The position numbers and the translations under genes were made by a program. DNA of 64,000 bases, from contig CP084166.1 in assembly GCA_021513695.1 (NCBI GenBank), forward strand, positions 2,048,001-2,112,000, given 5' to 3'. This DNA comes from Candidatus Heimdallarchaeum aukensis (lineage in GTDB: Archaea; Asgardarchaeota; Heimdallarchaeia; Heimdallarchaeales; Heimdallarchaeaceae). Below, in pieces: positions 2 through 46,318 of the stretch. The notes beneath the pieces are model-generated. The model was not told where the DNA came from, searched no databases, and saw only the letters and a program-made list of their open reading frames with translations. Position 1 is the stretch's first letter. Every line of letters begins with the position of its first letter.

Positions 2-3000
2 TTAGTAGGTGTAGGAGAGAGTACAGAGCAGTATATTGCTACAATCAGCAGAGAAGAAAAAACGATTACTTATTCCGCTATTCTAAGTTCAGCAGAGGAG
101 CAAGAACAGTGGAAATATTTCTATATTAGCCTTTATCAGCTTGCGAGACATATTCCTAAAGAATTACTTGTAGATAATTATTCAAATGGAAATAAAGAGG
201 TTGATCTATTAGATGAAAATTACCCTGTTTCTGGTATAATTTCTGATGCAAAAATGGTCGTTAATTATGAAGGTTCATATGTGGAAAAAATCATCCAATT
301 AGAAAAAGGAGCAAATCAAAATCTATACATTTCTGACTTGAAATCTACAATTACTAACATCCATAGCGCATATCCTTACGAAAATGCTTTATCTTCTTTG
401 CCTGAGGAAATAAAATGGAAAAAATATGATGTTCCATTTGATGGGTATATTCCTCTTGATAATGTCTATCTTGATGATTTTGACGGTAGTTCGTATTATA
501 TCTACGATGTAGTGGTTTATGTTGATGCTTCCACTTATTCTAAAGTACATTTAACAGTTGAAACTGAGGGATCTTTTGTTCTTTCTAACCGCTACTCTAT
601 AATATTACAAAAGATGGGTTTTTCAAACGAAGTTGTTTCTACAGTCTTTAGCGCACAACAAGGATATACTCCCTTGTATCTTCACGTTGTTTTTCCAAAA
701 ACAGCTTTTAATCAGAATATACGCATTCAATACATCTCCAATGGAGGAGTGGCTATAAGTGCTGAAAACAATAGAGAAGGAGATGCCATATCAGAGTGGT
801 TGATCTCTACTCCTTTCTATTCGGAAAAAAATGAGGACACCGTTGATTATCTTAATTTTATTTCACAAGTTACACCTATGGAAGGAGAGCGATTCGAAAA
901 AAGAGTAGTAGATTCAGAAGGATTTACCCACACAGAAACAATAGAATTTTCTGAATTCACTTTTCCTGGATTTTGTCCTATCTTAGACTTTGTTCCTCAT
1001 GCTGTTCCTTCAGGTTATTCTGTTATTCTCACTACTACGCTCGATTTCGCCAAAAGTTTGAACACTTCCTTAGTTCTACTTCTAAACAAAGAAAGTGGCA
1101 TAACAATACAATCCTTACTTTGGGATGAGACTCCACTTCTTTACATCAATGAAGGAGTATTTAACGAAATTGACTCCGATTTGGAAAATGGTATGATTAC
1201 TATACCTTTGAATAGTGAAGGGTTAACTGTCAACAGTCTCTTTTCTCCTAAAGAAAACAACCCTAATGAGTATGGTTTCATAGAAAACGACCCTGATTAT
1301 AACTTTCATTTTTCATCTTCTGACCCTTATAGTATAAAAACATCCTCTGTTAACCCTGATTCTGTTATTTTGAACAACAAAGGCATTCACAGAATAGTTA
1401 TCCAATTAACCTTTCCTTCTCCTTATAATACAGATTTTGGAATATATTTGGAAAATGTAGATGATAGCGTGCGAACTGTTTTATCTCCCTCAGATAAAGC
1501 AATAGACTTTCATGCAATCGCACAGAAGAACTTTATTCAATTTGAAAACGATCTTCATCAACCTCAAACTCTTGCTCAATTAGAGAAAAACGAGAATACT
1601 TTATTTAAATCACGATATTTCAAAGATGACTATGGTCAATACCATTCCTATAGAATTTATAGTCTTGGCTTTTCTGATGAATACACCTTAGATAAAGGAA
1701 AGAAATGGAAAATATATGATGGTGATACTGATGATTCTAACGATGTTATCTATGAAAGTACAGCTCACTACAATTGGAAACATGTAATAGGAAAGATGAA
1801 TTTTGCAATTGTTATAGATGAAGGAACTCCACAAGTTTTGCAATTGCCTTTTAATTTTCTAGTAGGTTACATGGTCTTTTGTGATTGGCTAGATACAAAT
1901 GGAGATGGATTAGAAGATACATGTGCTCCTTATATAGGTCTAGCAGACCCCTTAGATGCTAGTTCTACTTACGATGATGTAAAAAAAGGTGTAGTGTATA
2001 ATACAGAGGAAGAGAAGAAAATAAGTTATGATGTTACTGATGAACAACAAGCAGAACTCAAGAATCTTACTGTACGCCAATCGTTGATATCTTCTCTTTC
2101 AACTACAGTAATTACAAAAACAGAAGAAACCATCCCCTTATCCTACACTTCTGACGAAATAGCTGCTATTCAAAACAATGGATTAACTCTTGATCGTTAT
2201 CTTCATTCTTTAATAGAAAATGACTATTTGACCTACTCTGAAGATATTGCAAGAGTAGAAATAACTATTAGTTCTTCAAATAATAAAGAAATTGACCTTG
2301 CTTATGATTATGATAAAGAAATATTGTTCACCCACAGTGTTGATAATGCTACAGGAGAAGAAGAAAAAATAGTCTATGATTTTAGATATGACTGTTTTTC
2401 TGTCCTCACTCCTGATGCTCTTGCTAACGACAACTACAGAGTAGATTTTTATACTTTTAATAATAAACTAAGTCTCTATGATACCGATTTGTATAAACTT
2501 AAAGAAACGCCTAATTCTTACGGATTGTTAGATGATCCACAAACTCTTTCACCTATGGTAGTCTTAGAAAATTATAACTATGAAATAAAAGAAACAGTTA
2601 ATAGTCTTGATTCAAAAGATGAAGAAATTTTAAACAATAGTCCAACAACAATTGTAGACGCTTTTGTTCAAGGATTAAGTCTTTCTCAACTAAGCGTGGA
2701 AATGTATGATGCTGAAATAGAGATGGATTATTACAGTTTAGATCTCTTCTATTCTGTTTTCTTTAATGAATATTTGACTCTACAACAATTCTTCTATTCT
2801 CAAGAAACATTAAATAACAACCAGAATTATCAGTATTATCCTACTGGGACAATCCAATTTGCTAAATGGATTAGTTCAATACTTAACTCCTATATAATCC
2901 AACAATCAGACAAATTATTTGATGAATACCAAAACCGTACTTCTCGATATGATTCAGAGAAAAAAGCTATAGCTGCTATGTCCTTTTTGTTAGACCTTAT

Positions 3001-6000
3001 TATTCCTTATCGCGGATTCAAAACCTACGGTTCGGAACCTAAACCAGAAGAGACTCATCACCCACGTTTCTCTAGTTATGTGGACTTCAAATATAGTCTA
3101 GTTATGTTTTGGGGATTAATCTTAGGTAATAGTGCAGGCTGTGGAATACCTAAAAATTCTGTCTCTCTGTTTAGCGAGAGTGAGAGAACTGGAAAACTCT
3201 TGATGATTGACGAATTATGGGATAAAGCTATTAAACACTGGAACTTGGCAGATAAAAGTAGAATAGATGATCCTAGCGAATATTTGCCCTATACTGACCG
3301 AGCTGTAGTAGACAAAATACTGTTTGACGCCAGAGTAAGAGGAGATGAAGCTATGATCGACTGGATAACAAATGAAGATTATAGTGCTGAGGCTTATTAC
3401 ATGCAACCCTATGGAGTGGATTATTCGATCTATTACTGGTTGAAGGCTTTTACTATTCAACAAGGATATGACCCTTATGCTATCAAGGTTTACACCATTG
3501 AAGAGATGAATAGTCAAGAGAGAGAAGATTTTGACGAAAATTATTTTGTTATAGGCGTTCCTGTTTCCACAATCGAAGACCAATATTTAGAATATAACTG
3601 GTTTGTAAGTCTAGATAAAGAAACACGTGTGCCCACTTCTGCTACATCACAACTAATAGACTTTATCCCTCTTGTATTCGGTCAAAGTTCTAATCCACAT
3701 ATAAGAACAATGATGAAAATAATTAAAAGATTAGGAAATGCAGCAAAAGGAGAAAATTTCGGTTATAATACTTTTAGCATGAGTGAATTCAGCTTAATCG
3801 TTACTTTAGAATTTTTAGTTAATCTTGTAGATATAGGCGCTTTACTTATTGATATCAGAGATGCCTATATAGGAGCTACTCCTTTCATACGCAAAATGTC
3901 GCTCATGCAAATACCAATGGATATACTAGATTTGTTCACTCCAGGACCTTTTTCTCTCGTAGGAAATACAATGAATAAAATTTTCAAATCTATAGTCGGA
4001 GACGTTACCTTAGAAGTAAATAGGATAACAAAAACATTTAATTTACTAGATATTGTACAAAATTTCCCAAAAGGAGAGTGGAAAAGCATTGCTCGAGCAG
4101 CAGGAAAATCAGAACTAATGATCTGGATAGTTGGAGCAGCACAAGTGACTTACCGTTTCTCTAAACTAGCCAATCAATTCTATCAATGGTTCTTCTTCCT
4201 CCCGCAAAAGATTTTCATGAGTAGTTTACAAATAACTTTAGGGTCATTCATGATATTTGCCTCTAAAATGATTTATGCCATCAGAAGAATGGATATCGAA
4301 GAAGCAATGTTGTTAAACATTAAAGCGCAAAAATACTTCAACCAAGGACTAGATGATACCGCTAAAATGACAAGAGCTATATTAAGCCATCCAAAAATGC
4401 TAGCAAGATTTGGAACTGAAGAACTTATAGAACGAGCAAATATAGTAGCAAAATATTACATGAACATTATTATAAAGAAAGTAATGGAATTGGAAGCAAC
4501 ATCAAAAGCAATACTAGAATCGGTTGAAAAGTCACGCTTCTATGTTATGATGGCCTTAAGATATGCTACACATATGTACATGAACACCCCAGGAGGAGTA
4601 GGTATACACTTCTCTCCCAATTTAATTGATAATGAGAAAGAAACTGAAGGAATAAGACATTTCAACACCGTGGATAATATTTTGCCAAAATTAGAATATG
4701 AAATAGCAATGTATTACTGGAAGCATGAATATCTAGCGGATGATGAAAAAATAAAAGAGTATAATAGTGAAAAATTCAATTTCAGAGATGTAGAAAGCGC
4801 AAAAATACATATAACTATAGCTTTTTCATCTATTGCTGCAATACATTCGACACCAGAATCATTCCAAAGATATAAAGAACTACTAGAATACACAGATAAG
4901 AGGTTAATAGAAATAAAAAATGAAAAGGGTGAAAATCTAGAGTATACACCTATATGGTGGATTTTACATTTGCCTGTTGATCCCTCGCTACAAAAACTAG
5001 CCCTTAGCCACATATTTGATGAATCACCTGCAGTTTCACTGCTTCTAAAAGTTCTAATGGTAGAGAAAGGTCTTAACGAAGACTTATTAGAAAATAATAT
5101 CGACGATATAGATGAATACAATAAAGAAGTTCATTCCATTTTAGATCAAATTTTATCTTCTTCCCCCCTAAATATAAGTCATAAAGTCTTTATCCTTGAA
5201 AAAGATGAAAAAGGGAATCATATCTGGAAAGCAAGAATTTTAGATTTGTTAGGGCAATCTGAAGGATCATTAACTAAGTTAAGGACACGAGATGAATATA
5301 TTAAGTGGTCTGTAATCGGTAGAACAGGAATAGACTTGTTAGGCCTTTTCGGAAGTGAAGAATTAAAAAACTATTTTCCCAAAGGAGTAAGAAATGCTTT
5401 AACTGCTAGAAATGATCAAACTTCAATAATCTATGAGCTTATATGTATGGGATTATTAGATTTTAGATTTTATACAGATGATAAAAATGTAAAGGATCAA
5501 TTAAAAATTGATTTTCCAGAGCATGACTTTGAAAAAGAACCCAGTATTAGCATTGCTGAATTAGCTAAAAAATATAGTAAATATGATATTCTAGAATTAT
5601 TTGAAAAAAGTAATTTTATTAGACAGACTCTTATAAGTAATGGAGTAGACGGATTAATACACAGTACAAAAATAGGAAAGTCTCTTTATTCTGTTAAAGA
5701 TTCAACGGGAATATTCAATAAAGCTAATTCAAAAAATATTTTATACTCTGTAGCAGCTGAAAATGCATATATAGGTCATGGAAGTGTTATTTATTATTAT
5801 GATAAGCTACAAGGTGATATTATCACGGATATAGATAATAAATTGATATACAATGCTAGATATTATGATCCTACAGCTTCAAAATCACCTAAACCTTTTG
5901 TTCCAGGCGATGCAATATTACTCTATGATTCCAATGTAAATCGTTATCTGTTTTTAAGAACTAATTTTCCTGAGGACACTATGCTAAATCAAAATCAGAA

Positions 6001-8641
6001 ACTAGATGAATATAGTGGTTTTAAAAGAGAAATTAACGTGTTTTGGTTTCAAATAAACAAAGATACAAATGAGGGAGAGATAGTTTATGATACATTAGAA
6101 CACTATTGTTATGAAAATGAAAAACTGAAGGAAGGAATAAAAGTTGTTGGAACGGAGGATATTTTGCAAGAGGTAGATAAGTTTCATCCAAAGAGAAATA
6201 AAATAAGAAGTAGTCAACCTATAATATCAATAGAAGCAAAGCAAAATGGAGGGAACATAGATTACGTTGTCTCAATGGATGAACAACTTCCTTTATTTAG
6301 GTTTATAGGTGGAGATTATTCAACTGCAACAGAAAAAGACATCAATTTTGCTAGTTTTCTTTACCCAAGAAAACATTCCAACGATATTGTTTTCGGATTG
6401 CAAGATGATAACTTAGATTTTATCGATGAAAAGGGTTTATGGCCTATCCATATGGGTTTAAGCCCAGGAAGGTTTACATACAACGTGCAAAACATATATT
6501 TAGATGAGATTAATTCAGCAAAAGCGTTATTGGATAAATTAGATGAATTAGATAACTTGCCTGTAGTAGAAGTTAAAACAAAGGATAATGAATATATAAC
6601 TCGACCAGCAACAGTTCAGGAAGTAAATCAACAGAGAGTATATGAGTTAATTAGATGGTACTCTACAAGTCAAGTGTATACTTATTATGTGTCTAGTTTA
6701 AATAAAGAAAATAAAGCATTTTTGTGCAGAGCATATCTAGATGATTGGAATGCAGCTAAATCGTTAGGTGAAATCATAGAAATAGCAGAAGATACTAATG
6801 GAAATCTATACCAGAAATATGGTTATGAGAATAAACAAGAATATCTAACCTTTAGAATGAATGTTATTCAAACAATAATAAACGAACAAGAACAGTTCTA
6901 TAAATACAAGTTTAAAGATGAAAGTGATTTAACAAAAGAAGAAAAGTTGGTAATATTTCTAAAAGAACAAAAAGAATTTTTTGAAAGATTACATAATGAC
7001 GCTGCTAAAATAGAGGCATTTCAAGAACCATTTTTTTCAAACTTGAGACTAGACATTAAAGAAGTCGATACATATAATGTACTTAATTATCGCAGTTTAG
7101 AATCGTCAATTGAATTACTTTTATTAAATAGATTTGACTCGTATAATAAGATACACTTATTCGAAGGAGATGTACCTTTTTCAAGAAACCCGATGAAATT
7201 CGGTTTCGATAATGTAATTGTCCAAATAGGTACGAGAGCATTCATAAACAAGGTCAAAGAAGAGGGAATATTAGATTTTGATGAAGATAAAAATTCAGTA
7301 TTAGAACTAGCTAATAAAGTATTTAAAAGAAAAACAGTTATAAAACCATTAATCCGCGGACCAATAAAAGCAAAATCAATTGCTTTTCTCCAACATGAAG
7401 AAACAATGGCTAAACTGAACAATTATAAAACATTGCAAAAAATATCCAAAGAAGAAATAAGGCTCTGGAAACTTTACAACAAAAAATTAGATAATGAAAA
7501 AGGCCATTTGACTGTAGAGCAACTATACGAAATAGAAGAAGAGTTCAACAATATAAATGGAAAAAATATAGTAGGAAAACAAGGAGCAGGGATGACAGTA
7601 ATAGAAGATGGAAACACATATGTTGTAAAAATATACAGTCTCATCAGTGATTTAAGATATAATAACAAAATTCATGCAGGTAGTGAGGCAAATAAGTATG
7701 ATATTGCAGAAAGAGTGTTGGGACTAGCACAACACATAAAGTACGTAGCAAAGGAAGGAAGAATATACATTAATTATGCAATGGCAAACATTCTTTATCT
7801 GATAAAAACACTAACAAACGGTAAAATGGAAATAGATGACGTCCAGAATCTAAGGGACCTGGGAAATCCAAAGGAATTAGAAGCTATACTAGTAAATAAT
7901 TTAGGGGAAGAAAGAACAAAAGAAATACTAAATATTTTAGAAGAAGTAACCATAAGAACGAAAAGAAAAATAAAACAAGGAAAAGATTATTCCATAGAAA
8001 ATATAGAAAAAGGACAATCGTTGGCTTTTCAAATTGGATATGTGGATCTGAAAAATATAACCCCTGAGGTAAGAGGAAAATTAAGGCTACAAGGGATGTT
8101 ATTGAGAGAAATCTTGATGTTACTGGATATAATATATGGACTATATTATACAGGAAGAAATTATATGAAACGCCTAGATATTAATTTAGCGCAAACAACA
8201 GTAATTTTCGAAAAAACAACGGAAGAAGGCAAAACAATACTAAAATTAAAAGACGTAAAAACAAGCACAGAACAAGAAATGAATGGAGAGTTCATATCAT
8301 CACTGAACGATTTCGACCAAAAAACAGCATCAATAATAGAAAAACTGGCTGAAACTAAATATTCATCAGTATTTGGACCAGAATTTATGACTAGAGAACA
8401 ATTAAGAAAATTGGTAGATGAAATAATAGAAGAATATGAGAGTATACTAAAATTGAAAATAAGAAAATTCAATGAAATATTAACTCAAGACGATATGGAA
8501 GTAGAACTAGTAGCAAAGAAATTCAAAATAGAAGAATTGCTAAAAATGCTAACACCTAAAGGATTATGGTCAATGTACGAGCAAAAGAAAAGAAATAATG
8601 AAAAAAGAGGACAAACAAAAATAACAGACTTCCTAATTTAA
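2..8641 (+). CDS. Giant hypothetical protein, 5'-partial: frame is open from base 2 to the window edge, so over 2879 aa. Probable surface/membrane-associated protein.
   Basis: Single uninterrupted ORF. I translated bases 2-253 by hand and found no stop, so the gene starts upstream of the window. No catalytic motif recognised. There is a D-x-D-x-N-G-D-G-x-x-D calcium-binding-like motif (DWLDTNGDGLEDT) and a hydrophobic stretch mid-protein (around nt 3800-4300). Cys-poor, Asn/Asp/Tyr-rich. Confidence 0.7.
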   Translation, partial: LVGVGESTEQYIATISREEKTITYSAILSSAEEQEQWKYFYISLYQLARHIPKELLVDNYSNGNKEVDLLDENYPVSGIISDAKMVVNYEGSYVEKIIQLEKGANQNLYISDLKSTITNIHSAYPYENALSSLPEEIKWKKYDVPFDGYIPLDNVYLDDFDGSSYYIYDVVVYVDASTYSKVHLTVETEGSFVLSNRYSIILQKMGFSNEVVSTVFSAQQGYTPLYLHVVFPKTAFNQNIRIQYISNGGVAISAENNREGDAISEWLISTPFYSEKNEDTVDYLNFISQVTPMEGERFEKRVVDSEGFTHTETIEFSEFTFPGFCPILDFVPHAVPSGYSVILTTTLDFAKSLNTSLVLLLNKESGITIQSLLWDETPLLYINEGVFNEIDSDLENGMITIPLNSEGLTVNSLFSPKENNPNEYGFIENDPDYNFHFSSSDPYSIKTSSVNPDSVILNNKGIHRIVIQLTFPSPYNTDFGIYLENVDDSVRTVLSPSDKAIDFHAIAQKNFIQFENDLHQPQTLAQLEKNENTLFKSRYFKDDYGQYHSYRIYSLGFSDEYTLDKGKKWKIYDGDTDDSNDVIYESTAHYNWKHVIGKMNFAIVIDEGTPQVLQLPFNFLVGYMVFCDWLDTNGDGLEDTCAPYIGLADPLDASSTYDDVKKGVVYNTEEEKKISYDVTDEQQAELKNLTVRQSLISSLSTTVITKTEETIPLSYTSDEIAAIQNNGLTLDRYLHSLIENDYLTYSEDIARVEITISSSNNKEIDLAYDYDKEILFTHSVDNATGEEEKIVYDFRYDCFSVLTPDALANDNYRVDFYTFNNKLSLYDTDLYKLKETPNSYGLLDDPQTLSPMVVLENYNYEIKETVNSLDSKDEEILNNSPTTIVDAFVQGLSLSQLSVEMYDAEIEMDYYSLDLFYSVFFNEYLTLQQFFYSQETLNNNQNYQYYPTGTIQFAKWISSILNSYIIQQSDKLFDEYQNRTSRYDSEKKAIAAMSFLLDLIIPYRGFKTYGSEPKPEETHHPRFSSYVDFKYSLVMFWGLILGNSAGCGIPKNSVSLFSESERTGKLLMIDELWDKAIKHWNLADKSRIDDPSEYLPYTDRAVVDKILFDARVRGDEAMIDWITNEDYSAEAYYMQPYGVDYSIYYWLKAFTIQQGYDPYAIKVYTIEEMNSQEREDFDENYFVIGVPVSTIEDQYLEYNWFVSLDKETRVPTSATSQLIDFIPLVFGQSSNPHIRTMMKIIKRLGNAAKGENFGYNTFSMSEFSLIVTLEFLVNLVDIGALLIDIRDAYIGATPFIRKMSLMQIPMDILDLFTPGPFSLVGNTMNKIFKSIVGDVTLEVNRITKTFNLLDIVQNFPKGEWKSIARAAGKSELMIWIVGAAQVTYRFSKLANQFYQWFFFLPQKIFMSSLQITLGSFMIFASKMIYAIRRMDIEEAMLLNIKAQKYFNQGLDDTAKMTRAILSHPKMLARFGTEELIERANIVAKYYMNIIIKKVMELEATSKAILESVEKSRFYVMMALRYATHMYMNTPGGVGIHFSPNLIDNEKETEGIRHFNTVDNILPKLEYEIAMYYWKHEYLADDEKIKEYNSEKFNFRDVESAKIHITIAFSSIAAIHSTPESFQRYKELLEYTDKRLIEIKNEKGENLEYTPIWWILHLPVDPSLQKLALSHIFDESPAVSLLLKVLMVEKGLNEDLLENNIDDIDEYNKEVHSILDQILSSSPLNISHKVFILEKDEKGNHIWKARILDLLGQSEGSLTKLRTRDEYIKWSVIGRTGIDLLGLFGSEELKNYFPKGVRNALTARNDQTSIIYELICMGLLDFRFYTDDKNVKDQLKIDFPEHDFEKEPSISIAELAKKYSKYDILELFEKSNFIRQTLISNGVDGLIHSTKIGKSLYSVKDSTGIFNKANSKNILYSVAAENAYIGHGSVIYYYDKLQGDIITDIDNKLIYNARYYDPTASKSPKPFVPGDAILLYDSNVNRYLFLRTNFPEDTMLNQNQKLDEYSGFKREINVFWFQINKDTNEGEIVYDTLEHYCYENEKLKEGIKVVGTEDILQEVDKFHPKRNKIRSSQPIISIEAKQNGGNIDYVVSMDEQLPLFRFIGGDYSTATEKDINFASFLYPRKHSNDIVFGLQDDNLDFIDEKGLWPIHMGLSPGRFTYNVQNIYLDEINSAKALLDKLDELDNLPVVEVKTKDNEYITRPATVQEVNQQRVYELIRWYSTSQVYTYYVSSLNKENKAFLCRAYLDDWNAAKSLGEIIEIAEDTNGNLYQKYGYENKQEYLTFRMNVIQTIINEQEQFYKYKFKDESDLTKEEKLVIFLKEQKEFFERLHNDAAKIEAFQEPFFSNLRLDIKEVDTYNVLNYRSLESSIELLLLNRFDSYNKIHLFEGDVPFSRNPMKFGFDNVIVQIGTRAFINKVKEEGILDFDEDKNSVLELANKVFKRKTVIKPLIRGPIKAKSIAFLQHEETMAKLNNYKTLQKISKEEIRLWKLYNKKLDNEKGHLTVEQLYEIEEEFNNINGKNIVGKQGAGMTVIEDGNTYVVKIYSLISDLRYNNKIHAGSEANKYDIAERVLGLAQHIKYVAKEGRIYINYAMANILYLIKTLTNGKMEIDDVQNLRDLGNPKELEAILVNNLGEERTKEILNILEEVTIRTKRKIKQGKDYSIENIEKGQSLAFQIGYVDLKNITPEVRGKLRLQGMLLREILMLLDIIYGLYYTGRNYMKRLDINLAQTTVIFEKTTEEGKTILKLKDVKTSTEQEMNGEFISSLNDFDQKTASIIEKLAETKYSSVFGPEFMTREQLRKLVDEIIEEYESILKLKIRKFNEILTQDDMEVELVAKKFKIEELLKMLTPKGLWSMYEQKKRNNEKRGQTKITDFLI

Positions 8642-10326: not shown

Positions 10327-12684
10327 TTGTTCAGAACTTTATTCTTTTTTTGTTCCTTAAGCGTAACCTTTTTTATTTTTCCTCAATACATACTCTGGAT
10401 AGCAAAATTGACCTCCTATATTCCTTTATCTCTTTCTGATGTTGTGCATAAAATAAGTATCTATGAGTCTGAATTGAATTTATTTAATAGTTCCAAGAAA
10501 AAAAACTTTGGTATCTACTATACCCCTGACTTTATAGTTGATTATATTGTTTCTAACGCTTTTCTTAGATATTTATCGAAGTTTGACAGCGATATTCCGC
10601 AATTAGTTAAGAAAATCTTGTCTCTTAACTCAAACCTCTCAAATCATGAAAAAAAGATTCTAATATATTTACACCAACATATTTTTCCAAATATAACTGT
10701 CTGTGATATATCGATGGGTTGGGGTGTCTTCCTCATCCATACATTTGATTACTTATTTTTACTGCGTAAAAACGTATTTATTCTTTTATATTCTCCTTCT
10801 TCTTCTGAATTAGAAGAGGAAAGCAAAAAAATCGCTATAGATATCATTCAGAATAGTCTTTTTGGTGCTGATCTTTCCGAAAAGGCTATAGAATTGGCTC
10901 AATTAAAGTTATTTAAACAAGTAATGGAAGCTCTAAATTGTTCTAATATTAAACTTCCTCGTGCTAATTTTAGACAAGGAAATAGTTTACTAGGTTTTAT
11001 TAATAAAGAATATATTAATGGAAAGGATTCTACAAACTACTGGGTTGAACTTTTTTTATCTAAATTTAAAAAGAAAACATTAATCACAGAAGTTTATAAC
11101 TTTTTAAGAAAACAAAAACTAGTTCATTGGAAATCATTTTTTCCTCAATTGAGAAATCGAGAAGGTTTTGATATTATCGTAGGAAATCCCCCCTACATCA
11201 ATGTTAAACGTTTACCACAAATTGAGAGATATATTTATGCAAGCATTTATGAAACTTATAATTCCAACGGTGATCTATCTAACGTTTTCTGGGAACGTGC
11301 ATTATCAATATTACGTCCCTCTGGAGTTGTTTCTTTTATAGTTCCTCGATACTGGTTAGAGGGTAAAGATAGCAATAAATTGAGATATTTTATCCAGAAG
11401 AATTCTAGAATCCTTGAAATCATGGACTTCCAAAGTAATAGGAGTTTGTTTTCTGAGAGCGAAAAAAAGTTGGGGGTCGATGTTTCTATTGTAACTTTAG
11501 AAAAAAGAAAAGAAAAAGGATTGTTTGACGTTTATATTTTACAAAATTCTGAGAGAATAACCTCTGTCAATAAACATAATTTTCTTGTTAAACAAATCGA
11601 TCAAGAATCCCTCTCCTCTTCAAGATGGAACTTTAATGTTCCTAAACTGGTTGAATATCTCGATGAACATAGTTGTTTAACACTTGGGGGAGATAAAGAA
11701 AATAATATTCCTGGTGTGTGTTATATCGGGAAAGGTTGTTCAACAGGTAATAATTCAATATTTACTTTAAAAAAAATTAAAGATAATATATTTGAAGGAT
11801 ATAAAAAAGTTAAACTTTCTCTCCCTGAAAATGAACAAAGAGTTTTAAGAAGATTAATTAAAAATAGTGATATTACCCGCTATTTTCTTAAAAAACAAGA
11901 GCGATATTGGATATTTCTCAAAGACAAGTCTATTTCAGATTACCCTATGATTGAGCAGTATCTACATAAGTATATCGAGAAACTCAAAGAAACACAAAAA
12001 AAATATGGTAGTAAGAACTTCTTTGACTATGCAGCCTATCGCTCTTTAAATTTAATTGATAGTGTTCCAAAAATCGTAACGCCATATCAGTCTTCAATTA
12101 ATAGATTTGCTTTAGTTAAAAGTAAAGCGCCCCTAACAATTAATGAAACAGATGTTATCACTCTTGTTATCAAACAAGAAATGCGTTCTAAGTTGGACTG
12201 GTTTTTTCTTCTTTCTCTTCTAAATTCTGAACTTTTACATTATTATATTAAACACAGAAACAAAAAAATTTACTATCTCTACGATTTTAGAACAAGTCAA
12301 ATTACCACTCTACCTATTCAAGTCTCTCACAACCAAAAAGTGGTAAGTTTCTTTTCTGAATGTATGTACAGAGCACAAGCACTTCAATTGGATGATAGAC
12401 TATATATGCAAGTCAGATCTAAACTCGAGTTTATAATAAATTCTTTGGTTTTTGAAATTTATCTTAGAGAGAAACTATCTTCAGAATTAGAAGAAGTGTT
12501 GCAAGAAATTGTCTTTACGCAGAAACCTGAAGTCATTAATTTTAAACGCGAAAATGAATTTCTTTCAAAAATATTGTCCTCTCCTACAATTATTAAACAA
12601 CTAAGACAGATTTACTCAAATAAGGAAGTAACCTCTGTAGTTAAAGATTTAAGTTTACCCTATTCAAAATTTATTATAAAGTGA
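10327..12684 (+). CDS. Gamma-class N6-adenine DNA methyltransferase (Eco57I/TaqI-like, with TaqI-type C-terminal specificity domain). No nuclease domain, apparently orphan.
   Basis: Motif X (FGIYYTPDFIVDYIV), motif I-like (DISMGWGVFL), motif IV (IVGNPPYI) in gamma-class order. About 450-aa C-terminal TRD-like region. Start codon uncertain (first ATG used). Confidence 0.75.
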   Translation: MFRTLFFFCSLSVTFFIFPQYILWIAKLTSYIPLSLSDVVHKISIYESELNLFNSSKKKNFGIYYTPDFIVDYIVSNAFLRYLSKFDSDIPQLVKKILSLNSNLSNHEKKILIYLHQHIFPNITVCDISMGWGVFLIHTFDYLFLLRKNVFILLYSPSSSELEEESKKIAIDIIQNSLFGADLSEKAIELAQLKLFKQVMEALNCSNIKLPRANFRQGNSLLGFINKEYINGKDSTNYWVELFLSKFKKKTLITEVYNFLRKQKLVHWKSFFPQLRNREGFDIIVGNPPYINVKRLPQIERYIYASIYETYNSNGDLSNVFWERALSILRPSGVVSFIVPRYWLEGKDSNKLRYFIQKNSRILEIMDFQSNRSLFSESEKKLGVDVSIVTLEKRKEKGLFDVYILQNSERITSVNKHNFLVKQIDQESLSSSRWNFNVPKLVEYLDEHSCLTLGGDKENNIPGVCYIGKGCSTGNNSIFTLKKIKDNIFEGYKKVKLSLPENEQRVLRRLIKNSDITRYFLKKQERYWIFLKDKSISDYPMIEQYLHKYIEKLKETQKKYGSKNFFDYAAYRSLNLIDSVPKIVTPYQSSINRFALVKSKAPLTINETDVITLVIKQEMRSKLDWFFLLSLLNSELLHYYIKHRNKKIYYLYDFRTSQITTLPIQVSHNQKVVSFFSECMYRAQALQLDDRLYMQVRSKLEFIINSLVFEIYLREKLSSELEEVLQEIVFTQKPEVINFKRENEFLSKILSSPTIIKQLRQIYSNKEVTSVVKDLSLPYSKFIIK

Positions 12685-19178: not shown

Positions 19179-19658
19179 TAAAACGAAAATCTCAATAAAT
19201 ATTTATAAATTTTATCTATTAAGAAGTATTATGACTAATTAGAACTATCTTGATAATACTCTAAAAGACTAGTTACTAAAAGTAAACAATAAACATAAAA
19301 AACAACCACACCCTAGAAAACTTAGAAAGAGAGTAGTTAAAAAGTACAGAATGGAGAGGAAGTAACCTAAACCGCAGTATAGTAAATATTGAGTAGAAAA
19401 ACCATCTATAAGCGAATTAAAAAGATAAGGAAGATACTAATAAAGAATGGTGTGTAAACACTCGGATGTATCAAAGAAGGGAAAGCGGAAGATCCACCAT
19501 AATTATCACTGATTTAATATCCTGTACTCAGTAGGACACCTAAACCTCTCAAACGGGTATCGAAGATGACAAAAGATTCTTCCATGAGAAGGTAATCCAT
19601 TTTGTTAGTAATTGACCTCTTAATCTTAATTCTCTATAAACTAATTAAAATAGGAACT

Positions 19659-19797
19659 TGGTGCCCCGACCGGGAACCTCAAAAAAAATGCCTCAACATT
19701 TTTCTTTTTGAACCCGGGTCTGCGGATATTCCTGCCACATCCGCGAACTTTAGCATGTGAAAGTCCGCAATGATTGGCCGAGCTACACCATCGGGGC
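19659..19797 (-). tRNA. tRNA-Glu(TTC) with two introns (anticodon loop about 30 nt and T-loop about 31 nt), CCA encoded
   Basis: Exon sequence closely resembles archaeal tRNA-Glu (GCCCCGA-TGGTGTAGCTCGGCCAATCAT-GCGGA-CTTTCA...TCCGC-AGAC-CCGGG-TTCAA...TT-CCCGG-TCGGGGC-A-CCA). 139 nt = 77 + 2 insertions. Confidence 0.75.
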
Positions 19798-19998
19798 ATA
19801 GAGTTTTTGTCTTGTTGAAATGATAGAATTAAATTGATTTTTAATATTTTTGTTTGTCGTGTCCTCTTATTAATAATGATTTTCTTTATATTCTGTTATT
19901 ATCTTACAGAGATAAATTTAAAAAATAAATGTTAACTCGTTTCTTAATCCATATAGAAAAACTGCTCGTTTCCTACTTTGTTCATTTGCTTAAAATTT

Positions 19999-20084
19999 CG
20001 CGGGGATTGCCGAGCGGTCAAAGGCGCTGGACTTAGGATCCAGTCCTTAGTGGTTCGAGAGTTCGAATCTCTCTCCCCGCACCA
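19999..20084 (+). tRNA. tRNA-Leu(TAG), long variable arm, CCA encoded; integration target
   Basis: Acceptor GCGGGGA/TCCCCGC, anticodon arm CTGGA-CTTAGGA-TCCAG, T-arm GAGAG-TTCGAAT-CTCTC. 3' end duplicated 2.8 kb downstream. Confidence 0.85.
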
Positions 20085-20095
20085 TTTCTTCTTTT
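20057..20095. repeat. 39-bp direct repeat, copy 1 (attL-like): last 28 nt of tRNA-Leu plus 11 nt
   Basis: gagagttcgaatctctctccccgcaccatttcttctttt, identical to 22887-22925. Confidence 0.85.
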
Positions 20096-21080
20096 ATCTT
20101 TATATATTTCCTTTTCCTTTTTTCTTTATGGTTGCTTTTTCTCCTACTTTTTCTGTTATCGATTCTTTCTCTTTTCTTCACGACCCTCAATTTGTTTTTT
20201 TACTTCAGACTTTTATTGATTCTTCCCCTGACTTTTTTTCGTTTCTTTCTCTTCTTTCTTCCTCTTCTCCCTCTTCTCTTTCTTCTTTTGTAAGGGACAT
20301 TTTTTTACTTATTTCTTTTGATGATCCTTTTTCTCTTTCTTCTTCCTCTTTTCATTTTTTTGATTCTCATTTTAATTGGAAATCTTTTCTTTCCTTTTTC
20401 CTTGATTCTTTTTCTTCCCGTAAATTTTCTCTTTGCAATTTTTCTTTATTTTATGCTCATTTTTCTTTTTTGCATTTTTCTATTCCTAATTTTTTATCTG
20501 ATTTTGCATTCTTTTTTTTATCTGATTTAGATTTTAATTTTTTATCTTCTTCCTTTTTCAGTTCTTTTTTCTCTTTTGAATCTTTTTATGATTTTTTCTT
20601 TTCTTATTTTGATTCTTTTTTACCTTCCTATCGTCTCCTTATGCGTCATCGTTTTAATTCTTCTCCTAACCATTTTTTTCCTCCTTTTCTTCCATTCCTT
20701 CGTTCTGAAGAGGTTAGCTCTTATTTTAAGTCCTTTCTGTATATTTGTGGCTTTGATAAATCTGTTTTCGGTTTTGGTTCTTCTCGTGCTAAGGTTGATC
20801 CTCGTCAATTTGCTGAGTCTTTTCAAACTTCTTGGATTAAATTGCACTTTCATTTAGACAAAATGCGTTTTCCTTTTACTCTTTCTTCTACTCGTGTTCT
20901 TTCTCTTTATCATCCTGGTCGTTATGTTTCTTCTGTTAATCCAAGTAATGGTTTTGACGATCTAATTGTTTTTTCTTCCTCCTCTTCCATTCCATCCTCT
21001 CTTTCCTCTTCTCCTTCTTCTCTTTCTTCCTTTTCTTCTCCCGTTTCTCCCTGCTTTACTATTTGTGTTATTGAGCAAAA
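20096..21080 (+). other. About 1-kb polypyrimidine (C+T) tract on + strand
   Basis: Plus strand is overwhelmingly T/C with only scattered purines. Open in several frames on both strands because stop codons need purines (or T on the complement). Confidence 0.8.
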
Positions 21081-21081
21081 A

Positions 21082-22881
21082 ATGAACCATTTAGACGTTA
21101 AGCGTTTAGATAGTCCTTCTTCCTCTTCCGATTTTACGCGTTATCTCTCTTACCTTGCTAAAACCCACTTAAATCCCTTTATTCTTCTTTTACAAGCGTT
21201 TCATTATCCTGAAAAAGATAGACTTAAATTGTCCTCTCTATTGTATGATCGCTCTTTAACTTATTCTAACTCTGTTGGATTAGACTTTTTACGTAAAATC
21301 ACGAATGGTGATTTTCTATCTTCTCTTAAACTAATTGAACCTTCTTTAGATGATCAAACTATCAATAATATTCTTCGGGGTTCTATTATCCAGCACCAGC
21401 TTATTTCTTTGATTAAGTCTGGTTTTTGTTTTAAATTGGCTTTTGTTGATGGTTATTATACCGTTAAAAAGAGGTATCCTGGTGACCTGGTCTCTTCTGT
21501 TATATGTTATTATAATTGTTTAAATGGTTCTTGCGTTGAAATCCATTTTCCTTCGTCGCTATTTGAAATAAGAATAGATTCTAGGGGTCATTTTCTTGTA
21601 CCTCAGTACTCTGAATCTCAGATTTCTTCATATGCAAAGACAGAAAACGAGCTTATGGCTTATCAGGAACTCAACAATCTATTTAACACTTTACGGAGCG
21701 ATATGATTTTTAATGTAAATATTTTGTCTCTCCCTCCTTTTGAAATTGTAAAAAAAGTTAATTTATATCAAAAAAAGATTCTCTTTTTTTTACTTAATTC
21801 TAGACGAATTGCTGATTTAAGTATCTTTAACGATGGTTTTGTTAAATCTTATTTGGAAATTTTTACTTTACCAAAAACAGCTCATCGGATCAAGAGATAC
21901 TTATCCTATATACACGATTCACTTTCAATTTTTCCCTATTCGTTTTATCAGCAGTGGAATGCTCCTTTTGGCGATAGACTAAAAAACATGTTCTCTGGTT
22001 CTTTTAGTCGTGATACCCTTCTTTGTAAGCGTTTTAAAGAAAAGCTTCTTGAGTTTATTTTATCCTCTGATTATGATTTTTCCGAAATGCCTTTAGAATT
22101 TATTGAAACTAAGTTACGTCATTCACCTGATATTCAAATTTTTTTAGATTGCTATTTTAGTCAGTTTGCTCTTTATCCTGACGGTAATTTTTTACGGTTT
22201 AAACATAATAAAATTTCTTTGAAAGCTCTTGCTTTTTGGGATGAGACCAACAATCAATGGTTTTCGCTTAACAAGAAGCGTTTTTACATTTTATTGAACT
22301 TTGAAGATATTTTAGCTAATATAAGTAAGGAAGTGTCTTTTAAAGTAACAAAAAATCTTTTGCTTTTTCCTATTAAATTTAGTTTAAATAAACGCACAGG
22401 GCAGTTATCAGCTCTATTTAATACTGATTTTACTAACACTGAAGTAAACAGAATTTGGGTTGCATATCTTAAAAAATTGAAAGGAATGGATCTTTCCTTT
22501 GAGATTTTGTCCTCTTTTTCTTATGGTCAACGAAATAAGCGGAGTGGAATTGATTTATTCTATAACTGTAACCAAAAAAAGCTTTCAATATTGTTGGCAA
22601 TATTATCAGAAACTATTAAGTTGTGGAGTTTGGTTAAAGAACTTGTCCTTAACGTTGTTTATAAAAAATTAGATTCTGAAATGGATAAAATTATCTTATC
22701 TACCAAAGGAGATAAAATTGTTCTCAATGGCAAGCAATACAAAATGGTCTTACTCAATTACAATGAAAGTAATTCAAGGGTTAGGTGGTCGTTTAAACAC
22801 TACCTATTTCCTGTTGAAGGAACAATTATTGATGATTTTGTTAAAAAATGTTATTCTATTTATACTGATTTATTTTCTTAG
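21082..22881 (+). CDS. Hypothetical protein of the tRNA-Leu-inserted element (conservative start; in-frame extension to ATG 20128 would add an S/F/L-rich low-complexity N-terminus)
   Basis: Normal-complexity ORF (MNHLDVKRLDSP...) ending exactly at the right repeat. No integrase/recombinase motifs seen. Confidence 0.55.
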   Translation: MNHLDVKRLDSPSSSSDFTRYLSYLAKTHLNPFILLLQAFHYPEKDRLKLSSLLYDRSLTYSNSVGLDFLRKITNGDFLSSLKLIEPSLDDQTINNILRGSIIQHQLISLIKSGFCFKLAFVDGYYTVKKRYPGDLVSSVICYYNCLNGSCVEIHFPSSLFEIRIDSRGHFLVPQYSESQISSYAKTENELMAYQELNNLFNTLRSDMIFNVNILSLPPFEIVKKVNLYQKKILFFLLNSRRIADLSIFNDGFVKSYLEIFTLPKTAHRIKRYLSYIHDSLSIFPYSFYQQWNAPFGDRLKNMFSGSFSRDTLLCKRFKEKLLEFILSSDYDFSEMPLEFIETKLRHSPDIQIFLDCYFSQFALYPDGNFLRFKHNKISLKALAFWDETNNQWFSLNKKRFYILLNFEDILANISKEVSFKVTKNLLLFPIKFSLNKRTGQLSALFNTDFTNTEVNRIWVAYLKKLKGMDLSFEILSSFSYGQRNKRSGIDLFYNCNQKKLSILLAILSETIKLWSLVKELVLNVVYKKLDSEMDKIILSTKGDKIVLNGKQYKMVLLNYNESNSRVRWSFKHYLFPVEGTIIDDFVKKCYSIYTDLFS

Positions 22882-22886
22882 GCTTG

Positions 22887-22925
22887 GAGAGTTCGAATCT
22901 CTCTCCCCGCACCATTTCTTCTTTT
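22887..22925. repeat. 39-bp direct repeat, copy 2 (attR-like)
   Basis: Identical to tRNA-Leu 3' portion plus 11 nt. Confidence 0.85.
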
Positions 22926-22967
22926 CTTTTGTTTTCTTTTTCGTTTTGTTTCGTTTTGTTTATTTTT

Positions 22968-23009
22968 TGATAGTGATAGTGATAGTTACACCTTTTTTGA
23001 TAGTGATAG
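22968..23009. repeat. TGATAG hexamer array (3 + 2 tandem copies, each preceded by TTTTT)
   Basis: ttttttgatagtgatagtgatag ... ttttttgatagtgatag, immediately after the element right repeat. Confidence 0.8.
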
Positions 23010-23012
23010 ACT

Positions 23013-23708
23013 TTATTTTTCTCTTATTGTTCCGTAAATTCTCATATATCTTGGTTTTATTTTTTTTCTTTTGATGTATCTTTTTATTATCGTCACATCT
23101 ACTATTATTTTTACTCCTATCATTATCATCAATATTGTTTCTATTGTTCCATTGAATACCAGTAGATAAATTAGGAATTCTTCATCTCCTGCTGCATTAG
23201 CTATTGAAGCTATTACTGAAACAATTATTGAATAGAATCCGAATATTTGGTATAATATACTTCCCACTTTAATATCTGTTATTTTTTTTATTCTTGTTAG
23301 CATTAGATCTATTTTTCTGAATCCTATTGCTCTTGACGCTAGACTTATTAGAATCGCAAAGCTTCCGAAAACCACACTTCCTATAGTGAATGGTTTTAAT
23401 ATTTCTCCTATTGCATAAATCAACAAATATGTTCTTCCTTGCATTCCTTCCTTTCTGACGTGGTCTTTAAAGTATAGGTCTGCTATTCCTCCGAAGCTTA
23501 ATGCTATTGGTATTAAGCTTAGAGCTATTACTGCAGCAAAAATATAATCAAAAAACCAATTTACTGCTCTTAAGTATTGTATTGTCCTGTTCGACAGATT
23601 TATTGCTGCTGCTATTGTAAACAAAATGCTTCCCGTTATTGCTAAAAAAGAAAATTTGTTTATTTCTGTGTTAAATATTTTCTTCTGCTTTTCTTCGTTT
23701 GAGACCAT
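23013..23708 (-). CDS. Hypothetical membrane protein, paralog of 27285-27950
   Basis: 231 aa multi-TM. Shared blocks with the 27285 protein (..GFG..F...F......R.EG, basic KRK-rich C-terminal tail). Confidence 0.6.
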   Translation of the reverse strand: MVSNEEKQKKIFNTEINKFSFLAITGSILFTIAAAINLSNRTIQYLRAVNWFFDYIFAAVIALSLIPIALSFGGIADLYFKDHVRKEGMQGRTYLLIYAIGEILKPFTIGSVVFGSFAILISLASRAIGFRKIDLMLTRIKKITDIKVGSILYQIFGFYSIIVSVIASIANAAGDEEFLIYLLVFNGTIETILMIMIGVKIIVDVTIIKRYIKRKKIKPRYMRIYGTIREK

Positions 23709-46279: not shown

Positions 46280-46318
46280 CGATAGTGATAGTGCTGATAG
46301 TGATAGTGATAGTGATAG
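46280..46318. repeat. TGATAG hexamer array (CGATAG TGATAG tgc TGATAG x4)
   Basis: gctcgatagtgatagtgctgatagtgatagtgatagtgatagcac, about 150 bp downstream (3') of the minus-strand HTH gene. Confidence 0.8.

Follow-up and report, generated by a model that had tools for sequence, protein, structure and literature searches.

A one-gene insertion at the 3' end of a tRNA-Leu gene in Candidatus Heimdallarchaeum aukensis, a possible minimal site-specific mobile element

The window analysed here is a stretch of 64,000 nucleotides from Candidatus Heimdallarchaeum aukensis. An intact tRNA-Leu(UAG) gene lies on its plus strand at 20000-20084 (ARAGORN; Rfam, 59 bits), and its sequence agrees to 100% among the four lineages compared. 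The end of this gene forms part of a 39-bp direct repeat, GAGAGTTCGAATCTCTCTCCCCGCACCATTTCTTCTTTT, which occurs exactly twice, at 20057-20095 and at 22887-22925; no such repeat arose in 100 shuffles. The left, attL-like copy starts at the 5' base of the T-stem and ends 11 nt beyond the CCA. It comprises the last 28 nt of tRNA-Leu (T-arm, 3' acceptor strand and CCA) and 11 trailer nt. The right, attR-like copy is a displaced 3' fragment of tRNA-Leu, and the spacing between the copies, 2,830 bp, defines a 2,830-bp unit. The original prediction had described an insertion in tRNA-Leu bounded by direct repeats and had seen in it the signature of site-specific integration into a tRNA gene. The observation is real, and the geometry of the repeats is that of an integrated element.

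It had been suggested that the right repeat might instead be a second, degenerate tRNA-Leu pseudogene. Since neither ARAGORN nor Rfam calls a tRNA there, we reject this and regard it as a 3' fragment. A weaker tRNA-like match of about 13 nt precedes it (about 10 of 13 nt agree, with the variable-arm pattern 'cttag..g.tt.'). This diverged extension, at 22874-22886, contains the variable-arm-like 'cttaggcttg' and overlaps the stop codon of the ORF described below; BLAST lengthens the match at the right repeat to 22877-22947 at 87% identity. A diverged extension on the element side is as expected for the products of attP x attB recombination. The ends of the unit do not resemble those of transposons, insertion sequences or casposons, as they have no terminal inverted repeats and the duplication is 39 bp long and coincides with the 3' end of the tRNA. 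Inclusion of the tRNA-Leu 3' end in both repeats is what attL and attR of an integrase-mediated tRNA-integrated element would show.

The interior of the unit holds a single gene of 917 codons and a TAG stop (20128-22881, plus strand, from the ORF list). The product is a hypothetical protein of Ca. H. aukensis, and the NCBI annotation (K9W45_09175, 746 aa) covers only 20641-22881. The frame is open from 19978, and its most upstream in-frame ATG, at 20128, lies 33 nt past the left repeat. One ORF ending exactly at the right repeat had been reported; a single ORF it is, but its stop codon (22879-22881) falls 5 nt short of the repeat. Nor does it begin at 21082, as had been supposed, the start lying about 950 nt further upstream. 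Preceding the ORF, the original prediction placed a polypyrimidine tract of about 1 kb. Far from being a separate, non-coding feature, the tract turns out to be coding: the three frames of 20096-20640 contain 2, 15 and 0 stops, and the main-ORF frame stays open across this segment in just 0.3% of dinucleotide shuffles. Because the tract shares the open frame of the ORF, the element amounts to one gene that fills the interior. At the core of the tract is an N-terminal extension (20128-20640, plus strand) in which Phe, Ser, Leu and Pro together account for 70% of residues and the purine fraction is 0.19, compared with 0.56 +/- 0.07 in host genes. Within the aligned region, distant homologues have no counterpart of it. 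For the ORF as a whole the coding-strand purine fraction is 0.37, against 0.56 +/- 0.07 in 35 host genes, at the same G+C content. The composition of the element is foreign compared with that of host genes.

The gene is real, coding and under purifying selection. Relative to the copy in L001, dN/dS is about 0.26 with dS equal to that of the host, and the segment 20096-20640 shows one substitution in 545 nt; ORF indels between lineages measure 9, 18 and 87 nt, all in frame. The length of the protein is probably 917 aa and not the annotated 746 aa. An archaeal TATA-box-like motif, TTTATATA, can be read at 20099-20106 on the plus strand, centred about 26 nt upstream of the ATG at 20128. Going by known archaeal promoter geometry, it is a putative promoter that would give a leaderless mRNA.

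The neighbouring genes look like ordinary host genes in Pfam scans or in precomputed Pfam hits for L001, L009 and L018, the remainder having been judged by eye from the ORF list. The TGATAG array pointed out directly outside the right repeat is there (22968-23009). Since a second array lies at 46280-46318, in another convergent intergenic region of the window, it is a host motif, and we have rejected it as a part of the element.

How old is the insertion? The site is filled in three lineages that are about 5% apart, and all relatives found have either the segment or a deleted derivative of it at the same site, with divergence at the level of the host. For this reason the window copy is an old, vertically inherited insertion that predates the split between Ca. 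H. aukensis, Ca. H. endolithica and a third lineage. The mobility of this copy is historical at best, and recent mobility is unsupported. Presence of the segment in all relatives, with diverged repeats, had been proposed as a sign of an ancient duplication. All relatives found do carry it, but the repeats are undiverged in the two genomes with complete data; in the third lineage there is one mismatch, in the right copy. Empty tRNA-Leu alleles, which the original prediction recommended looking for, did not turn up. Among GTDB species genomes only Ca. H. endolithica matched, with a filled site; in JGI metagenomes the matches were two unrelated tRNAs; IMG/VR returned no match to an empty site or a circular form and no extrachromosomal copy; and exact look-ups of flanking host proteins led only to Logan contigs, none with an empty site. 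One of these contigs, L018, which adjoins the right repeat, stops about 31 nt into the 39 bp, probably at a k-mer assembly break. Purifying selection after fixation might just as well reflect a present function of the gene for the host.

In Ca. H. endolithica (L002) and in L009 the middle of the ORF is replaced by a CRISPR-like mini-array. It consists of two exact 30-nt repeats, two degenerate (distal) copies and two spacers of 36 nt, and is not accompanied by cas genes. These dimensions agree with those of CRISPR arrays (repeats of 24-40 nt, unique spacers of similar length), and the 3' end of the repeat, ATTTTAAC, is typical of archaeal type I/III repeats. Spacer 1 matches the element itself at 21384-21419 on the plus strand (BLAST, 37 nt, 89-92% identity), with 3 mismatches in 36 positions to the window and 2 in 36 to L001. 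This target encodes (I)QxQLISLIK, the most conserved motif of the protein family. It is preceded by TTC (21381-21383), a triplet whose frequency in the ORF is 4.7%, so that the spacer matches a mobile element beside a candidate 5' PAM. For spacer 2, neither the window nor IMG/VR contains a match. The repeat does not occur in the window, in IMG/VR or anywhere in the text and supplements of PMC8813620, and Rfam CRISPR-DR models do not match the array. If it is a working CRISPR array, it would mark the gene as one that is treated as foreign. In Heimdallarchaeum hosts Wu et al. (2022, PMC8813620) describe C4, an orphan array that is 'integrated immediately next to' a tRNA gene and may be the mini-array of L002.

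As had been predicted, no integrase is apparent in the 2.8-kb interior: its sole ORF has no match in Pfam, PHROGs, PADLOC or PDB sequences. The remote-homology search advised for integrase, transposase and viral relatives gave nothing either, whether with PDB profiles or with PHROGs, and homologues of the ORF and partner genes were likewise without sequence or profile matches in Pfam, PHROGs, PADLOC and PDB. By sequence profile the protein resembles no recombinase, nuclease or replication protein, and in searches of the ORF and its homologues no gene for a tyrosine or serine recombinase came to light within the element beside an att site. An HUH rolling-circle Rep was considered and rejected, as the family does not conserve the 'LHFHL' of the window copy. 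At E<=0.001 this family comprises 7 proteins in a set of 1.84 billion cluster representatives. Of the three word-indexed protein searches, two found close copies only, probably because low-complexity words filled the candidate list. A single member comes from a named source, Heimdallarchaeota, and the remaining contigs carry Asgard-type genes. The family appears to be previously undescribed and, having been seen only on Asgard-type contigs, restricted to Asgard archaea. Its distant members have an ordinary composition.

What, then, might the protein do? An alignment of five sequences (A6) has the invariant columns E44, D91, D92, E130 and K132, which map to a conserved N-terminal domain at 20815-21081 on the plus strand (E, 20815-20817; DD, 20956-20961; E-x-K, 21073-21081); the same motif is visible in the N-terminal ORF of L012. 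A Ser-rich low-complexity insert, at about 20968-21050, separates DD from ExK. Secondary structure is predicted around the motif as helix, strands, strand (DD), strand (ExK) and helix. At the level of motifs, E…DD…ExK resembles the signature of PD-(D/E)xK nucleases, with E in helix 1, D at the beginning of a beta-strand and (D/E)xK in the next strand. In this domain pLDDT is below 50, and fold searches gave no match.

Distant members of the family are found beside duplicated gene ends. In L010 and L011 the insert between the genes for fumarase beta and fumarase alpha holds a single gene, that of the member P0007. Fumarase beta has its last 45 codons duplicated there, and the right copy ends 3 nt before the ATG of alpha. 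The two copies in L010 differ at 91% of synonymous sites (pS 0.91) and at 16.5% of non-synonymous sites (pN 0.165). In L013 two intact copies of the final 100 codons of a Rab-like GTPase gene (pS 0.70, pN 0.13) enclose an N-terminally truncated member and a partner gene of 425 aa. In both cases the copies have diverged under purifying selection, and hence one of them was imported, in L010 from a different lineage. Family members are repeatedly found where the 3' end of an adjacent gene is duplicated and one copy is foreign, and the order in L010 and L013, with a foreign replacement end and the native copy displaced, is that of a homing cassette. In L010 it is the native 3'-end copy that abuts the alpha ATG, whereas in the window the two tRNA copies are identical. 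Homologous recombination is an unlikely route of insertion in L010, because the copies are only about 70% identical with saturated synonymous sites; besides the family gene the insert offers no other gene in cis. The best-sampled distant member, P0003, showed neither a tRNA nor a flanking duplication in the 21 contigs read (the six shown share one context), and it has no match in IMG/VR.

The reading that we prefer, tentatively and with slightly less than even confidence, is that the 2,830-bp unit represents a very small mobile element with site-specific insertion, integrated and fixed in this lineage, which encodes its own likely recombinase or nuclease. Such an element would be simply built, from a single att-type segment (in which the 3' part of tRNA-Leu is repeated, so that the tRNA remains intact), a TATA-type promoter and one protein of 917 aa. 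Its circular form, of 2.83 kb, would carry about 52 nt of tRNA-Leu-like sequence as attP, with the expected junction …TTCTTAGGCTTG + 39-mer + ATCTTTATATATTT…. The circle could recombine with the chromosomal tRNA gene within the 39 bp of identity, in a Campbell-type insertion presumably catalysed by the element's own protein, to yield an intact tRNA at the left and a displaced 3' fragment at the right. In Ca. H. endolithica and the third lineage the middle of the element was later replaced by the CRISPR-like mini-array. What we infer in this scheme is the circular intermediate, the promoter and the role of the protein as recombinase or nuclease. Three possibilities had been offered originally. 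A new type of tRNA-targeting insertion fits best, because one gene fills the element and its relatives lie beside duplicated 3' ends; a decayed element and a non-autonomous one rank lower.

The non-autonomous possibility is unlikely, though less so than the other rivals. The unit might be a mini-replicon or satellite, a plasmid-like circle of 2.8 kb whose protein serves replication or something else, inserted by an integrase acting in trans or by host homologous recombination through the tRNA-like segment of about 50 nt. Archaeal plasmids of 2-3.5 kb that encode only a Rep are known (pTN1, pGT5, pTP2), and the strong strand asymmetry of the element recalls rolling-circle replicons. The ORF has no recognisable recombinase, the perfect identity over 39 bp could support homologous recombination, and the two Heimdallarchaeum genomes contain numerous integrases and transposases as well as several tRNA-integrated elements (PMC8813620). 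However, the protein has no HUH, primase or helicase signature or profile match, the candidate H-x-H of the window copy is not conserved among family members, IMG/VR yielded no extrachromosomal form, and the case of L010, with target copies only about 70% identical and the family gene alone inserted, is hard to explain in this way. If the unit were what decay has left of a larger integrated virus, plasmid or island whose integrase is gone, the ORF would be surviving cargo, possibly used by the host. The insertion is ancient and fixed, two lineages have a version that is further decayed, and purifying selection suits beneficial cargo. We still think this improbable, as the gene has its own TATA-like box, begins 33 nt past the left repeat and ends 5 nt short of the right one, with no residue of other genes; given the independent one-gene insertion in L010, a precise deletion sparing only this gene would be needed twice.

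A cassette of the homing type is a rather improbable alternative. Here a site-specific endonuclease would cut empty alleles, and double-strand-break repair would copy in the replacement 3' end together with the gene. The E…DD…ExK motif suggests a nuclease over a covalent recombinase, and the replacement ends in L010 and L013 are long (135-300 nt), diverged and intact, like that of Allomyces atp6. Within this genus, a co-opted homing endonuclease has also been proposed for HeimM2 (Wu et al., PMC8813620). Simple homing immunity nevertheless does not seem to fit the window copy, since the exact 39-bp duplication keeps any site shorter than about 40 bp intact at one junction, attL or attR, so that the carrier allele would be cut too. 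Neither GTDB genomes nor JGI metagenomes show presence/absence polymorphism, and the protein matches no homing-endonuclease family. Finally, there might be no mobile element at all, and the tRNA end might simply have been duplicated locally on either side of an ordinary host gene specific to this lineage. Such a gene could be expected to occupy one site in every relative, to diverge as the host does and to be under purifying selection, as is observed. We find it highly improbable: the composition is far from that of host genes, the gene is matched by a CRISPR-like spacer and dispensable in two lineages, the duplicated part is exactly what keeps the tRNA intact, and elsewhere the family lies beside unrelated genes whose 3' ends were imported.

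If the single protein is the integration enzyme of a mobile element, as we favour, it would represent a new enzyme family for site-specific DNA insertion, and the element would be among the smallest self-sufficient integrative elements known. The host lineage belongs to the archaea closest to eukaryotes, in which mobile elements are barely charted. A wider generalisation is possible, although we hold it as doubtful: a minimal element class of the Heimdall-group Asgard archaea, so far unrecognised, may consist of a promoter, a protein of 750-930 aa and an att segment, insert site-specifically at the 3' ends of conserved genes (tRNA, fumarase beta, Rab-like GTPase) while supplying their replacement, use a new site-specific recombinase or nuclease unrelated to the tyrosine, serine, DDE, HUH and Cas1 enzymes, and be in conflict with CRISPR, given that in sister lineages the gene has given way to a mini-array with a spacer against the element. 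The imported gene ends show that such cassettes have passed from one host to another, diverged one and altered how conserved genes end, which is a tangible path for gene flow, and the mini-array derivative would add a non-viral case of CRISPR use by one element against another. Even a conservative reading corrects the public annotation, from 746 aa to probably 917 aa, and defines junction sequences that can be tested by read mapping and PCR.

Several known systems share features with this element. Free-standing homing-endonuclease cassettes, for example at atp6 of fungal mitochondria in Allomyces, bring a substitute 3' gene end with them. L010 and L013 have the same order of gene, foreign 3' end, selfish ORF and displaced native 3' end, and in the window and L010 the ORF directly follows its target in the same orientation. 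Unlike such cassettes, the family has no LAGLIDADG, GIY-YIG, HNH or profile-detectable PD-(D/E)xK domain, and self-immunity is difficult to explain with the exact 39-bp duplication of the window copy. Virus-borne mini-CRISPR arrays (Medvedeva et al. 2019, PMC6858448) resemble the array of L002 and L009, which is cas-less, has two spacers, sits in a mobile-element backbone and matches a close relative of its carrier with one spacer, but which replaces the sole gene of an integrated, non-viral element. HeimM2 and the aloposons (Wu et al. 2022, PMC8813620) are found in the same hosts and integrate beside tRNA genes without a classical phage-type module. They differ from the window element in their size, at least 8 kb, and in their genes, which encode giant Otus/Ephialtes proteins and a homing-endonuclease homologue; the text and supplements of that paper do not mention the window element or its family.

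A parallel in geometry is offered by tRNA-integrating elements with tyrosine integrases (Williams 2002, as cited in PMC8813620), both archaeal (SSV-type, pNOB8-type) and bacterial (P4-like). In these, too, the direct repeat runs from the T-arm through the 3' part of the tRNA into the trailer, and the element supplies a replacement 3' end that leaves the tRNA intact, with the displaced fragment at the far end. The window element differs in that it has one gene of an unrelated family and no tyrosine or serine recombinase domain, and in that its relatives target the 3' ends of protein-coding genes with replacement segments of 135-300 nt. SSV-type elements also partition their integrase gene, which contains attP and is split on integration. 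The att frame of the window element could continue in a similar manner: an ORF at 22718-23074 reads through the right repeat in the same frame in which the main ORF reads through the left one, and a circular form would consequently give an ORF continuous across attP. In contrast to the SSV case, the joined piece would overlap the C-terminus of the gene in another frame and shows no similarity to anything, integrases included. The simpler assumption is that the gene starts at the ATG at 20128 and has a TATA-like box of its own.

The tRNA-Leu(UAG) gene at 20000-20084 is called by both ARAGORN and Rfam. Two exact copies of the 39-mer GAGAGTTCGAATCTCTCTCCCCGCACCATTTCTTCTTTT, and no more, are present, one at 20057-20095 and one at 22887-22925; shuffles lead one to expect no such pair. 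The predicted arrangement, a stretch in tRNA-Leu bounded by 39-bp direct repeats, is real. Each repeat runs from the first T-stem base to 11 nt beyond CCA. The whole unit measures 2,830 bp. The duplicated part is precisely what restores a whole tRNA; on the element side there is a longer tRNA-like segment, partly diverged. Upstream of the right repeat a weaker tRNA-like match continues for about 13 nt (variable-arm 'cttag..g.tt.') and shares bases with the stop codon of the ORF. Neither ARAGORN nor Rfam calls a tRNA at the right repeat copy, and inverted repeats are absent from both ends of the element. Arrays of (TGATAG)n lie at 22968-23009 and 46280-46318, each in a separate convergent intergenic region (9 TGATAG matches against 0.4 expected). 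The first array has 3 or 4 units depending on the lineage, and the motif is one of the host.

Starting at 19978, the frame of the ORF has no stop before the TAG at 22879-22881. The polypyrimidine tract had been described as a feature preceding the ORF, but it falls within this open frame. In its purest part (20096-20640) the three frames contain 2, 15 and 0 stops, and the ORF frame through the tract stays open in just 0.3% of dinucleotide shuffles. Since the frame is so rarely open in shuffles, the tract appears to be coding, or to have been so until recently. The earliest in-frame ATG is at 20128. A TATA-like box, TTTATATA, can be read from the sequence at 20099-20106, its centre about 26 nt upstream of that ATG. 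In archaea a TATA box lies at this distance before a leaderless transcript, and we infer that TTTATATA is the promoter of the element's gene. Given this box, the open frame and the ATG, the element would therefore be made up of an att segment, a putative promoter and one gene of 917 codons. The single ORF of the original prediction is retained, but it begins at 20128 and stops 5 nt before the right repeat, not exactly at it. The NCBI annotation (K9W45_09175, Ca. Heimdallarchaeum aukensis) covers only the last 746 codons.

One MAG, L001, whose flanks are 97.7% identical to those of the window, also has this element, and at this very position. Comparison of the two ORF copies gives a dS of 0.054-0.070 and an omega of 0.26; dS of the host gene next to the element is 0.077. 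Indels between lineages measure 9, 18 and 87 nt, and every one is in frame; the longest is a 29-codon deletion in the L001 copy (at 10460, opposite window 21093-21179), just 3' of the ExK motif. Relative to L001, the 545-nt tract at 20096-20640 has a single substitution; elsewhere the ORF differs by about 3%. Purines make up 0.37 of the coding strand of the ORF and 0.19 of its first 171 codons, whose predicted product is rich in Phe and Ser, against 0.56 +/- 0.07 in host genes (n=35); the G+C content of the gene is that of the host.

A scan for the tRNA 3' end in 185,579 species genomes found only Ca. H. endolithica (L002), which has a 1,353-bp version at the same site. The version in a third lineage, L009, is likewise short. 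Any two of the three lineages share about 95% identity, in host flanks and retained element parts alike. Because the site is the same and the element parts are as diverged as the host flanks, the insertion must predate the split of the aukensis, endolithica and L009 lineages. The 39-bp repeats are identical in aukensis and endolithica, and the right copy in L009 has one mismatch. Divergence within the element is a mosaic. At 20641-20820 the window differs by 1.1% from L009 and by 9% from L002. In the tract upstream, L002 and L009 are closest (1.65%) and the window stands apart (3.85%). This suggests recombination among element variants after the lineages had split. Neither an empty site nor a circular junction was found in the 185,579 species genomes, JGI metagenomes, IMG/VR or exact look-ups of the flanking host proteins; the sites recovered from relatives are all filled. 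The geometry speaks for a mobile insertion as predicted, but the copy is old and fixed, with no sign of current mobility.

Among the neighbours are genes for an Eco57I-type methylase, ribosomal protein L11, Spt5, lipoyl synthase, an LplA/LipB-type ligase, prefoldin, an SRP54-family GTPase and a class Ib tRNA synthetase. Calls come from a Pfam scan or from precomputed Pfam matches in L001, L009 and L018 (a contig carrying a flanking host protein), the others from translations judged by eye. The Pfam-assessed neighbours look like ordinary host genes. On the minus strand at 19657-19797, ARAGORN overlooks a gene resembling tRNA-Glu(TTC), in which an intron of roughly 30 nt follows the anticodon loop. 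In the window it has an extra 31-nt T-loop insertion (19676-19706), absent in L001 and L002, so that either a further intron is present or the gene may be disrupted; Rfam calls the L002 copy (49.6 bits) and not that of the window. L001 has about 1.8 kb extra with a NosD/beta-helix gene (L001 7229-9054 versus window 19411-19609 / 19939-19992), between the gene for a 250-aa membrane protein and the two tRNA genes. It lacks the 54 nt directly upstream of tRNA-Leu that are common to the window, L002 and L009. The surroundings of the two tRNA genes are a rearrangement hot spot. Elsewhere in the window, a plus-strand ORF of 2,795 aa (254-8641) has no Pfam match; giant genes are numerous in Asgard archaea (Wu et al., PMC8813620).

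That the element has no integrase is upheld: Pfam, PHROGs, PADLOC and PDB sequences offer no match to its only ORF. When 1.84 billion cluster representatives were scanned exhaustively with phmmer, 7 proteins reached E<=0.001: 3 close copies or fragments from Heimdallarchaeum relatives and 4 distant members. Two of the distant ones are P0003, of 725 aa (E 2e-31; its annotation reads 'Candidatus Heimdallarchaeota archaeon'), and P0007, of 906 aa; the other two, P0004 and P0006, are partial. P0008, also partial, is an additional distant match. No full-length family gene of Ca. H. endolithica appeared in the protein searches. The window protein and the distant members have in common FxxxWxKxH, GFDD, ExK, QNQLISLIK, YHQxW, PDGNFW, LLQNPIxF and GxGxDLF. 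The purine fraction of the distant members is 0.55, an ordinary composition.

In three of five contexts, the window included, an intact target gene is followed by the family gene and then by a displaced 3' end of the target. On contigs L010/L011, P0007 is the sole gene between those for fumarase beta and alpha. The last 45 beta codons are present twice, at the end of the intact gene and downstream of P0007, where the copy is in frame and stops 3 nt short of the alpha start codon. The copies differ at 91% of synonymous and 16.5% of non-synonymous sites, so they diverged as working genes in separate lineages; the beta 3' end that now completes the gene arrived with the insert. On L013 the final 100 codons of a Rab-like GTPase gene are present twice, both times intact (pS 0.70, pN 0.13), on either side of a truncated member and a 425-aa partner gene. 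Beyond this module the same pair of genes recurs in an older and degraded form. This looks like two modules nested at one GTPase 3' end, both degraded. L012 has an intact module, in which the family gene (split by one stop) and a convergent 335-aa partner accompany the GTPase. The partners at this Rab-like GTPase locus (L012 2856-3863, minus; L013 2608-3609, minus, and 5221-6498, plus) form an ORFan family of 333-425 aa with 25-52% mutual identity, without Pfam or PADLOC matches and absent from the window and L010.

For P0003, 21 contigs were read, and the six places shown have one common context, with neither a tRNA nor a flanking duplication. Directly adjoining P0003 and P0010 upstream (L003 9430-9990; L016 555-1072) is a conserved stretch of about 400-500 nt. 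Its G+C is 39% versus 30%; its identity is 96%, and that of the coding region 93.6%. Its predicted structure is strong (MFE z = -5.8), and Rfam gives no match. In that lineage it may be a non-coding RNA tied to the gene; the window and L010 copies have no such stretch in front of them. Just past the two-gene block of P0003, an ABC-transporter ATPase ORF (L003 13450-13941) is cut to its C-terminal part, without the Walker A region. It may be another displaced gene fragment, and no matching intact gene lies nearby.

How might such an arrangement arise? A circular form would recombine, attP x attB, within the 39-bp identity, giving the observed layout of repeats. The attP junction expected is …TATACTGATTTATTTTCTTAGGCTTG + GAGAGTTCGAATCTCTCTCCCCGCACCATTTCTTCTTTT + ATCTTTATATATTTCC…, and the empty attB junction …CTTAGTGGTTC + 39-mer + CTTTTGTTTTCTTTTTCG…. 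The insertion may be driven by a recombinase or nuclease, site-specific and not yet classified, that the element itself encodes; to this reading we give somewhat less than an even chance. It is favoured because homing fits the window copy poorly and host recombination does not fit L010, whose insert holds the family gene only. A Rep-type mini-plasmid integrated in trans is a rather unlikely source. Host homologous recombination could account for the window copy, but hardly for L010, where the target copies were already about 30% diverged and the family gene is the sole gene of the insert.

That the element is a homing-type cassette we consider improbable. Simple nuclease homing fits the window copy badly, since every site of less than about 40 bp that the enzyme could recognise would stay intact at one junction. 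A stripped remnant of a larger element is about as doubtful, and that there is no mobile element at all is very hard to believe. On balance, the element fits best as an insertion of long standing, now fixed, from a family of one-gene site-specific insertions in Heimdall-group archaea that has not been described before.

In the short versions of L002 and L009, the segment equivalent to window 20833-22762 is swapped for 434 nt, which open with a CRISPR-like mini-array in place of the middle of the gene (L002 5770-5458, minus strand, CP084167.1; L009 1126-1440). Its 30-nt repeat, ATTTCAATCCTATCTTAGTCCAATTTTAAC, is present in two exact copies and, further on, two degenerate ones, with spacers of 36 nt. 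The target of spacer 1 is window 21384-21419, from which it differs at 3 positions; against L001 there are 2 mismatches. This target codes for the most conserved motif of the family and is directly preceded by TTC, a trinucleotide that makes up 4.7% of those in the ORF. The array is unaltered between the L002 and L009 lineages, which are about 1.4% apart in the region. Wu et al. (2022) placed an 'orphan array C4' beside a tRNA gene (PMC8813620), and the L002 array may be this one. Mini-CRISPR arrays are known from archaeal viruses, and the array of L002 and L009 resembles them (PMC6858448).
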